DNA of 41,773 bases from Candidatus Nomurabacteria bacterium (GTDB lineage: Bacteria; Patescibacteriota; Minisyncoccia; Phycocordibacterales; UBA9973): NCBI GenBank assembly GCA_943359365.1, contig CALRHG010000003.1, forward strand, positions 1-41,773. The letters run 5' to 3'. A program made the position numbers and the translations under genes. Positions 8,786 to 41,770 of the stretch are shown one piece after another (position 1 is the stretch's first letter; the number at the start of each line of letters is the position of its first letter). The notes under the pieces are model-generated. The model was not told the DNA's origin, did no database searches, and was given only the letters and a program-made list of their open reading frames with translations.

Positions 8786-8834
8786 TTACATTGGCTAGCG
8801 CAAAAACTCTCAAATATCCTTATTTTTGGCAACT

Positions 8835-8876
8835 AAAAAAGCCAGCGCAGTCCTTCCGGAGCAACGCTGGTCTTTT
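8835..8876 (-). terminator. Rho-independent terminator upstream of gyrB
   Basis: Minus strand CCAGCG-TTGC-TCC GGAA GGA-CTG-CGCTGG followed by C-TTTTTT; a small hairpin CGAGCA/TGCTCG (8882-8900) precedes it. Confidence 0.75.
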
Positions 8877-8908
8877 CGATTCGAGCAGATAAGGTGCTCG
8901 CTCCTTCA

Positions 8909-9013
8909 TTAGAGCCCGTCTCGAGCATCCGTAAATGCGGAACTCTGGGAATGAGCTTTGTTGAACTTAGCGATGCGCTTGCGCGCATTTTGTAAGAACT
9001 TATTTGATTTCAT
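8909..9013 (-). CDS. Possible 34-aa basic small protein MKSNKFLQNARKRIAKFNKAHSQSSAFTDARDGL
   Basis: ATG overlaps the end of the upstream ORF, ends TAA TGA just before the terminator; below the ORF-track cutoff. Confidence 0.35.
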   Translation of the reverse strand: MKSNKFLQNARKRIAKFNKAHSQSSAFTDARDGL

Positions 9014-9323
9014 GATTTTCTTGCTCGATTTCCGCTGGCATCGACTCCTCTAGGCACTTCATAACACCCACATAAGCTTCATGGGTAATAAGGCATTGCC
9101 TAAATGCTTCCTCTAAAGCTTCGTTGACATTCGTCATGTTCTGCCCATCGAAGTCTTCTGACCCTTTGAATCTGACCTCTTTCTGATCCGCTAAAGAAAC
9201 ATGGACTCGGCCACTAGAGTACGAAATTTGAATCGTGGCTATGTGAAGTTCCTTTTTTGTAAGCAGCTCAATAATTTCCGGTTTTAACACACATTCCTCC
9301 ATTATTAGATTTTCAACGACCAT
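9000..9323 (-). CDS. Hypothetical acidic protein (107 aa)
   Basis: ORF track 9000-9329; SD-like GAGGTG 5 nt before ATG at 9323; flanked by a structured leader and a terminator. No family recognised. Confidence 0.65.
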   Translation of the reverse strand: MVVENLIMEECVLKPEIIELLTKKELHIATIQISYSSGRVHVSLADQKEVRFKGSEDFDGQNMTNVNEALEEAFRQCLITHEAYVGVMKCLEESMPAEIEQENHEIK

Positions 9324-9407
9324 ATCCACACCTCGAACAATTCGAGGCTGGTGGATATGTTTCTAGTGTTTCTTGGAGACTACAAACGCATTCAGCAACC
9401 TCAAATT
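9321..9407 (-). promoter_or_regulatory. Translational switch: RBS-sequestering hairpin (9321-9359) and competing anti-sequestrator (9384-9407 with 9339-9362)
   Basis: CATATCCAC/GTGGATATG plus CCTCGAA/TTCGAGG stem covers SD and AUG; the upstream 24-mer can pair with the 5' arm at 21 of 24 positions including G-U. Confidence 0.75.
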
Positions 9408-9464
9408 ATTTTGGGTAAGGAGGAGGCCAAGGAGGTTATTAAATTTTAAGTTTATATTTTTCAT
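9363..9464 (-). CDS. Leu-rich leader peptide 2, MKNINLKFNNLLGLLLTQNNLRLLNAFVVSKKH
   Basis: Manual translation: 9 of 33 residues Leu, core CTC CTT GGC CTC CTC CTT; stops next to the RBS hairpin. Confidence 0.6.
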   Translation of the reverse strand: MKNINLKFNNLLGLLLTQNNLRLLNAFVVSKKH

Positions 9465-9477
9465 GTTGTTTTTAAGT

Positions 9478-9516
9478 AAAAAGAAGAAAACCAGCCCTTG
9501 GAAGGCTGGTTTTCTT
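9478..9516 (-). terminator. Attenuator-type intrinsic terminator
   Basis: 13-bp perfect stem AAGAAAACCAGCC/GGCTGGTTTTCTT followed by CTTTTT; 5' arm also complementary to 9541-9562. Confidence 0.85.
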
Positions 9517-9672: not shown

Positions 9673-9738
9673 CCATTCCTATCTAATTTTCTAGCATATG
9701 CGGAAATCTTAGATAAGCATTATTTATAGAAATAAAAT

Positions 9739-17283: not shown

Positions 17284-17371
17284 TGGCGGAGGGTAGGAGA
17301 TTCGAACTCCTGGTGAATTGCTCCACACACGCTTTCCAAGCGTGCGCACTAGACCGCTATGCGAACCCTCC
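17284..17371 (-). tRNA. tRNA-Ser(GGA)
   Basis: Acceptor GGAGGGT/ACCCTCC-G-CCA, anticodon arm CACGC-TTGGAAA-GCGTG, long variable arm, GTTCGAA T-loop. Confidence 0.95.
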
Positions 17372-41498: not shown

Positions 41499-41590
41499 TG
41501 GCGGAGCCGGGCGGATTCGAACCGCCGAGGGGTTTTGAAGCCCCTGCCTCTTTAGCAAAGAGGTACGTTAGACCGCTCTGACACGGCTCC
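41499..41590 (-). tRNA. tRNA-Ser(GCT)
   Basis: Acceptor GGAGCCG/CGGCTCC-G-CCA; anticodon arm CCTCT-TTGCTAA-AGAGG; long variable arm. Confidence 0.95.
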
Positions 41591-41680: not shown

Positions 41681-41770
41681 GGACAGATGGGTGAGTGGTT
41701 TAAACCAGCGGTTTACTAAACCGCCGTTCCCTTAAAAGAACCGTGGGTTCGAATCCCACTCTGTCCGCCA
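41681..41770 (+). tRNA. tRNA-Ser(ACT)
   Basis: Acceptor GGACAGA/TCTGTCC-G-CCA; anticodon arm GCGGT-TTACTAA-ACCGC; long variable arm; GTTCGAA T-loop. Confidence 0.9.

Follow-up and report, generated by a model that had tools for sequence, protein, structure and literature searches.

Bacteria of the Candidate Phyla Radiation have tiny genomes with few recognisable regulators and depend on partners for amino acids, and how they sense the supply of these amino acids is largely unknown. An intergenic region of 450 nt between pheT and a small ORF in an uncultured Candidatus Nomurabacteria bacterium raises this question at a single locus: what is controlled by two short leucine-rich leaders that lie one behind the other in front of an orphan gene, and which signal do they read? 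The window, that is, the whole stretch of 41,773 nt that was analysed, is contig C3 of a 664-kb genome in 46 contigs. The reading favoured here, which we hold to be reasonably probable, is that the second leader belongs to a leader-peptide, amino-acid-sensing attenuator that forms the second of two serial ribosome-mediated stages. The features of the locus are collected in Table 1.

Table 1. Features of the pheT-gyrB interval and its flanks, in window coordinates; tier 1 and tier 2 denote the first and second stage.
Feature	Position	Strand	Description
pheS	12251-11529	minus	
pheT	11520-9739	minus	
Tier-1 promoter-like site	-35 9655-9650; -10 9633-9628	minus	TTTACA-N16-TATTAT
Leader 1	GTG 9621 to stop 9565	minus	short, with Leu run
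Tier-1 segments 1 and 2	9577-9569; 9564-9555	minus	hairpin 9577-9555 overlaps Leu run of leader 1
Terminator T1 (intrinsic)	9484-9516	minus	15-bp stem and U run; -20.8 kcal/mol; output of tier 1
Leader 2 ORF	9363-9464	minus	33 codons and stop TAG at 9365-9363
Leader 2 codon run	9417-9434	minus	codons 11-16, Leu Leu Gly Leu Leu Leu; all Leu codons CUY
Anti-sequestrator	9384-9407	minus	leader 2 codons 20-27; covariation and synonymous-recoding test
Shared strand	9339-9362	minus	partner of anti-sequestrator; from 9359 down also 5' arm of H2
Hairpin H2 (sequestrator)	9321-9359	minus	folded energy -22.9 kcal/mol
SD-like GAGGUG and AUG	9334-9329; 9323-9321	minus	inside 3' strand of H2; AUG in frame with downstream ORF
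Downstream gene	9000-9300	minus	GGAGG 9300-9296, GTG start 9290-9288; 96-aa orphan protein ending at 9000
gyrB	8758-6680	minus	3' of the small ORF

Leader 2 has no SD sequence, and its ATG stands 19 nt after T1. Its codon run is followed, after 10 nt, by the anti-sequestrator, which is able to form 21 of 24 possible base pairs with the shared strand, including three G-U, in a duplex of -18.8 kcal/mol. The competing hairpin, H2, consists of an outer stem of 9 bp (9359-9351 with 9329-9321), an internal loop, and an inner stem of 7-8 bp (9347-9341 with 9337-9331) closed by a 3-nt loop at 9340-9338. These are the features that a preliminary description of the same DNA had pointed out, and each of them is borne out: the pairing of 9407-9384 with 9362-9339, the burial of GAGGUG and AUG 9323 within H2, and a Leu-rich CUY run in a position that fits a stall just before the anti-sequestrator. 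The leader-target complementarity is far beyond chance. The best duplex between leader and target reaches -19.7 kcal/mol, compared with -8.1 ± 2.2 kcal/mol for 2000 dinucleotide shuffles, none of which is as low, and 8 of 1116 other 99-nt pieces of the window pair as strongly. The surrounding 201-nt region has a folding z-score of -3.66 and contains the long-range helix in its minimum-energy fold. A search of Rfam at the gathering threshold gives no match in the leader region; below the threshold there are only weak, hairpin-like matches, the best of the Rfam leader families being Phe_leader, with 17 of the 55 bits required, and it falls on T1.

The anti-sequestrator and the hairpin recur among relatives. 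A DNA search of 212 genomes of the genus recovers both in 12 other genomes, while the 'matches' in a further 59 are short A/T-rich pieces only. The covariance model R1, built from alignment A1 of nine members, matches 19 of 151 genomes of the genus and none of 149 genomes of other genera of the order, both tallies including one unpublished genome (G113) that is excluded from all alignments and other counts. Among 60 pheT-linked loci the model finds a single match. The element is a family confined to one genus.

Both helices are conserved across alignment A3, which comprises 17 members and leaves out G206, G139 and G152a (duplicated inner hairpin), G113 and the forms fused to T1. In the long helix, 83.1% of the cells are paired, against 35-48% for slid partners, nine pairs have changed on both sides, and none of 500 shuffles reaches these pairing and change values; because the members share ancestry, these counts exaggerate their independence. 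The corresponding values for H2 are 80.9% against 35-52%, with five pairs changed on both sides, and one inner pair is A-U in six members and G-C in six. One position is consistent in all three strands: its base in the shared strand is G or A, the partner in H2 goes from C to U accordingly, and the partner in the anti-sequestrator, a U, pairs with either. The conserved G-U pairs of the long helix indicate that the minus strand of the window is the RNA strand. Thus two mutually exclusive helices, both conserved and both covarying, share the strand 9362-9339, and the alternative pairing proposed in the preliminary description stands on comparative evidence. The inner hairpin of H2 is duplicated in G139 (L018), G206 (L017) and G152 (L019), so that the outer stem surrounds a pair of similar stem-loops; compensatory changes are seen in the second of these in G152.

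The stage that precedes leader 2 is of a familiar type. In the trp, leu, his, thr and pheA attenuators, a short leader with a run of cognate codons is translated, and the position of the ribosome decides the fold. The region 9655-9484 looks like a complete classical terminator attenuator of this kind and fits the trp/leu/his pattern fully, including a terminator with a U tract: besides its hairpin with segment 1, segment 2 has an alternative partner in the 5' arm of T1 (9509-9500; perfect, 8 bp, -14.5 kcal/mol). Tier 1 is conserved in G034, G206, G139 and G013. Two more attenuator-like loci are present in the same genome (L166 and L167; G000:C1 at about 44880-45140 on the plus strand and G000:C7 at about 8790-9040 on the minus strand), each consisting of a short leader and T1. 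A 54-aa ORF and aspS follow one of these leaders, which has a Phe-rich run; behind the other are a 40-aa ORF and a gene resembling murB. At both loci, the 5' arm of T1 also partners an SD-like 3' arm resembling that of H2, with no second leader between, and the same fused form is found in G013.

Leader 2 resembles the trp/leu/his-type systems in its ORF, its codon run and the exclusive helices that share a strand. This likeness suggests a second round of classical transcription attenuation, in which H2 would be the terminator, 9407-9384 the antiterminator and premature termination the output. Consistent with it, tier 1 in the same loci works through a canonical terminator, its leaders resemble the tier-2 leaders at the N-terminus, and three of the six relatives that lack a leader ORF (G010, G103 and G123) have 6-7 U in the 8 nt after the stem. 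Unlike those systems, however, tier 2 has an output helix with no U tract that holds an SD-like motif and a start codon instead. The tail after the full H2 stem is A-rich, with at most three U in eight positions in 14 of the 17 members, among them each of the 11 tested that bear the ORF; in the window, H2 scores -2.4 for its tail and T1 -3.5, and T1 is flagged as terminator-like whereas H2 is not. With no U tract and no flag, H2 is rejected as a canonical terminator, and control by premature termination at this stage is unlikely. Further differences from the trp/leu/his type are that tier 2 has no segment holding the anti-sequestrator in a resting state, that its stop codon abuts the output hairpin, that the cargo in the window is an orphan protein and that no Rfam leader family is recognised. 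A role of H2 as promoter of the downstream gene was considered and dropped, as no consistent -35/-10 motif is seen by eye. A translational output is favoured over termination.

What a translational output would act on depends on where the downstream protein begins. The preliminary description had H2 masking the ribosome-binding site and start of the downstream ORF, with AUG 9323 as that start. The masking recurs: of 13 ORF-bearing relatives, 10 have an AUG, UUG or GUG at a distance of 5-7 nt behind the SD-like motif, and the other three (G034, G210 and G221) lack such a start codon. The assignment of AUG 9323 as the conserved start of the protein is not supported. The only homologue of the 96-aa protein (in G013; E 3e-8) has its start aligned with GTG 9290, and G034, which is 82% similar to the window over 430 nt ending at 9296, beyond which the genes differ, has an SD and an ATG at the place aligned with GTG 9290. 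The conserved start is therefore GTG 9290 with its own GGAGG, which stands 20 nt beyond H2, and H2 cannot by itself shut off the gene. In searches, the 96/109-aa ORF belongs to no Pfam or NCBIfam family and the 96-aa protein matches itself only among 5.8 billion proteins; the protein has no known link to leucine.

The start codon within H2 opens a mini-ORF whose relation to the main start varies. The mini-ORF overlaps the main start in G152a, G196, G081 and G206, and it stops 12-13 nt before it in G139 and G011. In a count by stop position, five members have a mini-ORF whose stop either overlaps the main start or is at most 13 nt away. In G127 and G080 the mini-ORF continues out of frame; in the window, it joins the main ORF in frame. 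In relatives, a mini-ORF that ends at or near the main start would, when translated, raise expression of the gene behind it. A pairing of a CUCC motif before the leader stop with the main SD was also considered and, by eye, is inconsistent across members.

Whether the switch answers to a ribosome depends on whether leader 2 is a reading frame at all. Each of the 14 published ORF-bearing members has one open frame from ATG to stop, 28-41 codons long; in the two remaining frames, 99 of 870 codon positions are stops (11.4%). The length differences among the leaders are in frame, and the Leu runs of the window, G034, G206 and G139 keep their amino acids through synonymous changes. The shared strand contains an invariant core, and most of its columns are invariant in the alignment; the distance from the leader stop to this core is exactly 10 nt in 12 of the 14 members, the remaining two having 9 and 14 nt. 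When each of 12 leaders is compared with 1000 synonymous recodings of itself, the natural codons of 11 surpass at least 97.4% of the recodings in their pairing with the shared strand; the twelfth, G152b, stands at 11%, its row being read one base out of frame. In those 11 members, the anti-sequestrator is under selection at the RNA level beyond its peptide, and the conservation of the C-terminal leader peptide is largely attributable to this constraint. Leader 2 is thus kept as an open frame, and its translation is predicted. The leader peptides have no match among the Pfam and NCBIfam families. T1 lies directly upstream of the leader 2 ATG in 9 of 13 loci. A leaderless promoter is unsupported, as only 5 of 13 loci have TANNNT in the 25 nt before the ATG and no clear promoter is seen.

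Six relatives (G172, G183, G084, G010, G103 and G123) have the tier-1 leader and T1 and no ORF between T1 and the anti-sequestrator. Both helices are kept in them with many compensatory changes, and of the two helices the long one is by far the more stable in these relatives (-17 to -27 versus -11 to -16 kcal/mol). Such loci speak for an RNA element in which the ORF is secondary and the helices answer a protein, a ligand or a double-strand RNase acting on a helix of 22-24 bp, and TrpR-like genes lie near three loci. This explanation does not account for the ORF that, with its fixed stop, all 14 other members keep open, nor for codon runs that agree between the two tiers (below); moreover, the element has no conserved unpaired pocket and no Rfam family. 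We consider it quite unlikely, and the ORF-less relatives are either decayed second stages or responders to another input.

The codon run itself differs from locus to locus. Leader 2 carries LLGLLL in the window, G034 and G206, SLLLNLL in G139, YYY in G152a, KTTTK in G152b, SYYTT in G196, TCTCTTT in G127, and YYWHFF-like runs in G011, G080, G081, G028 and G210. Ten loci carry tier 1 upstream, with a promoter-like site, a short leader, a hairpin overlapping the run, a segment that pairs in two ways, and T1. In all ten the tier-1 run matches the tier-2 run, as in LLLSL with LLGLLL, NYYY with NNYYY, VTTKT with KTTTK, and aromatic with aromatic. When one Leu locus is kept, leaving seven of the ten loci, the observed pairing is the best of 5040 permutations, in a test for which the run segments were chosen by eye and the loci are mutually related. 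Runs that differ by locus and match the tier-1 run argue for aminoacyl-tRNA supply, not antibiotics, as the input; judged from these sequences, the signal is likely amino-acid or aminoacyl-tRNA supply.

The cargo sometimes fits the codon run. Behind a Tyr run lies a gene distantly related to prephenate dehydrogenase; asd, chorismate mutase and prephenate dehydratase genes follow a Thr run, and the aromatic runs stand before uncharacterised proteins of about 400 aa that adjoin M19 or M20 peptidases. PDB sequence searches with cargo proteins of 425 and 437 aa give no usable match. In three loci, a protein of roughly 400 aa with ATP-grasp-like features follows the element, a feature match that serves as a lead only.

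These observations bear on two further explanations. The element could be a gene for a small functional peptide, such as a bacteriocin, a RiPP precursor or a membrane peptide, followed by a stabilising hairpin; N- and C-terminal stretches conserved around a variable middle would suit such a gene, as would the ATP-grasp-like proteins. The genes that follow the element are unrelated between loci, the C-terminal conservation is explained at the RNA level, and the variable middle matches the run of a different upstream leader, all of which makes a functional peptide very improbable. In the ermC/cat type of translational attenuation, a leader ORF is followed by a segment that pairs with the 5' arm of a hairpin, and the hairpin buries the SD and start. 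Drug induction of this type, or sensing of the loss of a tRNA modification, which the preliminary description had offered as alternative inducers, is likewise highly improbable: the layout of leader, anti-sequestrator and sequestrator resembles ermC, and any stall in codons 11-16 would act alike, but none of the 20 loci examined is followed by a resistance gene, and amino-acid-specific runs that vary by locus and match between tiers are unexpected of a drug-arrest peptide. Unlike in the ermC/cat type, the main start lies outside the hairpin.

The genes behind the switch vary in identity. In the pheT-gyrB interval (loci L003/L067, L069 and L072 in relatives) the cargo differs per genome, and similarity to the closest relative ends right behind the switch (9296). 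Orphan small proteins are examples of this cargo; that of G139 is an AbiEii/DUF6922 toxin-antitoxin pair, and that of G152 includes the asd, chorismate mutase and prephenate dehydratase genes. With the switch as its 5' edge, a variable island adjoins aminoacyl-tRNA synthetase genes (pheT; elsewhere trpS-aspS). In the window, an overlapping ORF of 34 codons (8909-9013, minus strand) is found at the end of the 96-aa ORF, and the C-terminal stretch of this smaller ORF corresponds to the end of a 78-aa ORF in G034 (L003 2189-2425), and a terminator-like hairpin follows at about 8830-8875. The gyrB product of the window has 692 aa and no intein splicing domain, and that of G034 (L067 3082-6456) has 1124 aa with such a domain between DNA_gyraseB and Toprim. 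ARAGORN calls three tRNA-Ser genes in the window (17284-17371, 41499-41590 and 41681-41770), one of them with the unusual anticodon ACT, compared with two tRNAs from Rfam at the gathering threshold. Directly after pheT lies a 38-nt stretch (9680-9717, minus strand) that recurs with 87-95% identity at three other sites in its own genome (C4, C15 and C1) and with up to 100% identity in several relatives. A short TTTTCCACA-like motif stands just downstream of it, and such a motif is also found upstream of tier-1 promoters in most loci compared. It may serve as a common promoter element or as the target of a regulator.

The direction in which the switch turns is a proposal within the preferred reading. 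The two states are near-isoenergetic in the window (-23.4 versus -24.0 kcal/mol, computed as two halves), and their energies lie within 7 kcal/mol of each other in 11 ORF-bearing members. As bare helices, the anti-sequestrator state has -18.4 kcal/mol and H2 -24.0 kcal/mol, so that the former is 5.6 kcal/mol less stable alone; the refolding barriers are about 10 and 16 kcal/mol. In the ribosome-free molecule the anti-sequestrator helix prevails only through additional pairing of the pyrimidine-rich Leu run with the released 3' arm of H2 and with GGAGG (9435-9431 with 9300-9296). When a ribosome footprint is placed on the run, the equilibrium model favours H2 (P 0.85-1.0), not the anti-sequestrator helix. 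The claim that a ribosome stalled at codons 11-16 frees the ribosome-binding site is thus unsupported in its direction by equilibrium folding. Since equilibrium models point the opposite way, the direction rests on a kinetic argument, namely that the anti-sequestrator would be made first and pair before the 3' arm of H2 exists.

Under this kinetic argument, the leader-peptide attenuator would act as follows. Transcripts that escape the terminator attenuator of the first stage would carry leader 2, in which the 3' half of the leader (9407-9384) and the 3' arm of H2 would compete for 9362-9339. With charged Leu-tRNA plentiful, ribosomes would traverse codons 20-27 to the stop and occupy the anti-sequestrator, and H2 would form and bury GAGGUG and AUG 9323. 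A ribosome stalled in the Leu run would leave the anti-sequestrator free to pair with the shared strand once this is made, exposing the SD-like motif and AUG in what would be the 'on' state. Translation from the AUG 9323 site would then enter the downstream ORF, in frame in the window. In Leu-type loci, an untranslated message could additionally clamp both ribosome-binding sites through the Leu run. Which state is 'on', stalling as the selector and the translational output are all three points that we infer.

The nearest known working analogue is the mycobacterial polycysteine short-ORF attenuator. In the available part of that report, leaderless polycysteine short ORFs are described as cysteine-responsive attenuators that control a ribosome-binding site, the stalled ribosome itself blocking the sequestering structure (10.1101/834739). 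As in that system, supply would be sensed here by stalling in the codon run of a short ORF, which would alter a structure that sequesters a ribosome-binding site, and several loci per genome carry such ORFs. Unlike the system as described there, a separate anti-sequestrator is proposed here, the runs differ by locus and a terminator stage precedes. The actinobacterial LEU element upstream of leuA, as far as its available description goes, comprises a Leu-codon leader able to pair with the SD of the gene behind it, forms a pseudoknot and was thought by its authors to be protein-bound (PMC1262725). The pairing of the Leu run with GGAGG in the ribosome-free fold of the window is similar; in contrast to what is described for that element, it is limited to Leu-type loci, and conserved pairing of the codon run with the main SD is rejected as a family feature. 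Tandem attenuators are described in the accessible portion of the work on the Salmonella mgtCBR leader, in which two short ORFs, each tied to alternative stem-loops, serve transcription control (PMC3641672). Two short ORFs with alternative stem-loops likewise share one leader here, but one amino-acid run is common to both stages and a translational output is probable for the second; in these respects the arrangement departs from mgtCBR as portrayed there.

Leader-peptide attenuation as such is known. What is new is the host group, the single cassette with exchangeable runs, its stacking behind a terminator stage with the same run, and the proposed output through a mini-ORF. A literature search found, among the matches listed, no paper that joins attenuation with the Candidate Phyla Radiation. 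For the genus as a whole, we tentatively suggest, with somewhat less than even confidence, that Patescibacteria of about 0.7 Mb use a modular, protein-free form of sensing: one cassette of leader frame, anti-sequestrator and sequestrator, whose runs are interchangeable among Leu, Tyr, Thr, Phe and aromatic types, placed behind a terminator attenuator with the same run, may impose a two-step, amino-acid-specific gate on orphan and accessory genes in variable islands near aminoacyl-tRNA synthetase genes, the second step working through the coupled mini-ORF and not through the gene's own ribosome-binding site.

If this is true, individual aminoacyl-tRNA pools would be read directly by the ribosome in bacteria of the Candidate Phyla Radiation. 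The identity of the run, taken together with the cargo, would provide a criterion by which regulated accessory genes could be recognised in genomes of uncultured organisms, and the succession of a terminator and a mask over the ribosome-binding site would offer a compact two-stage design for study or reuse.
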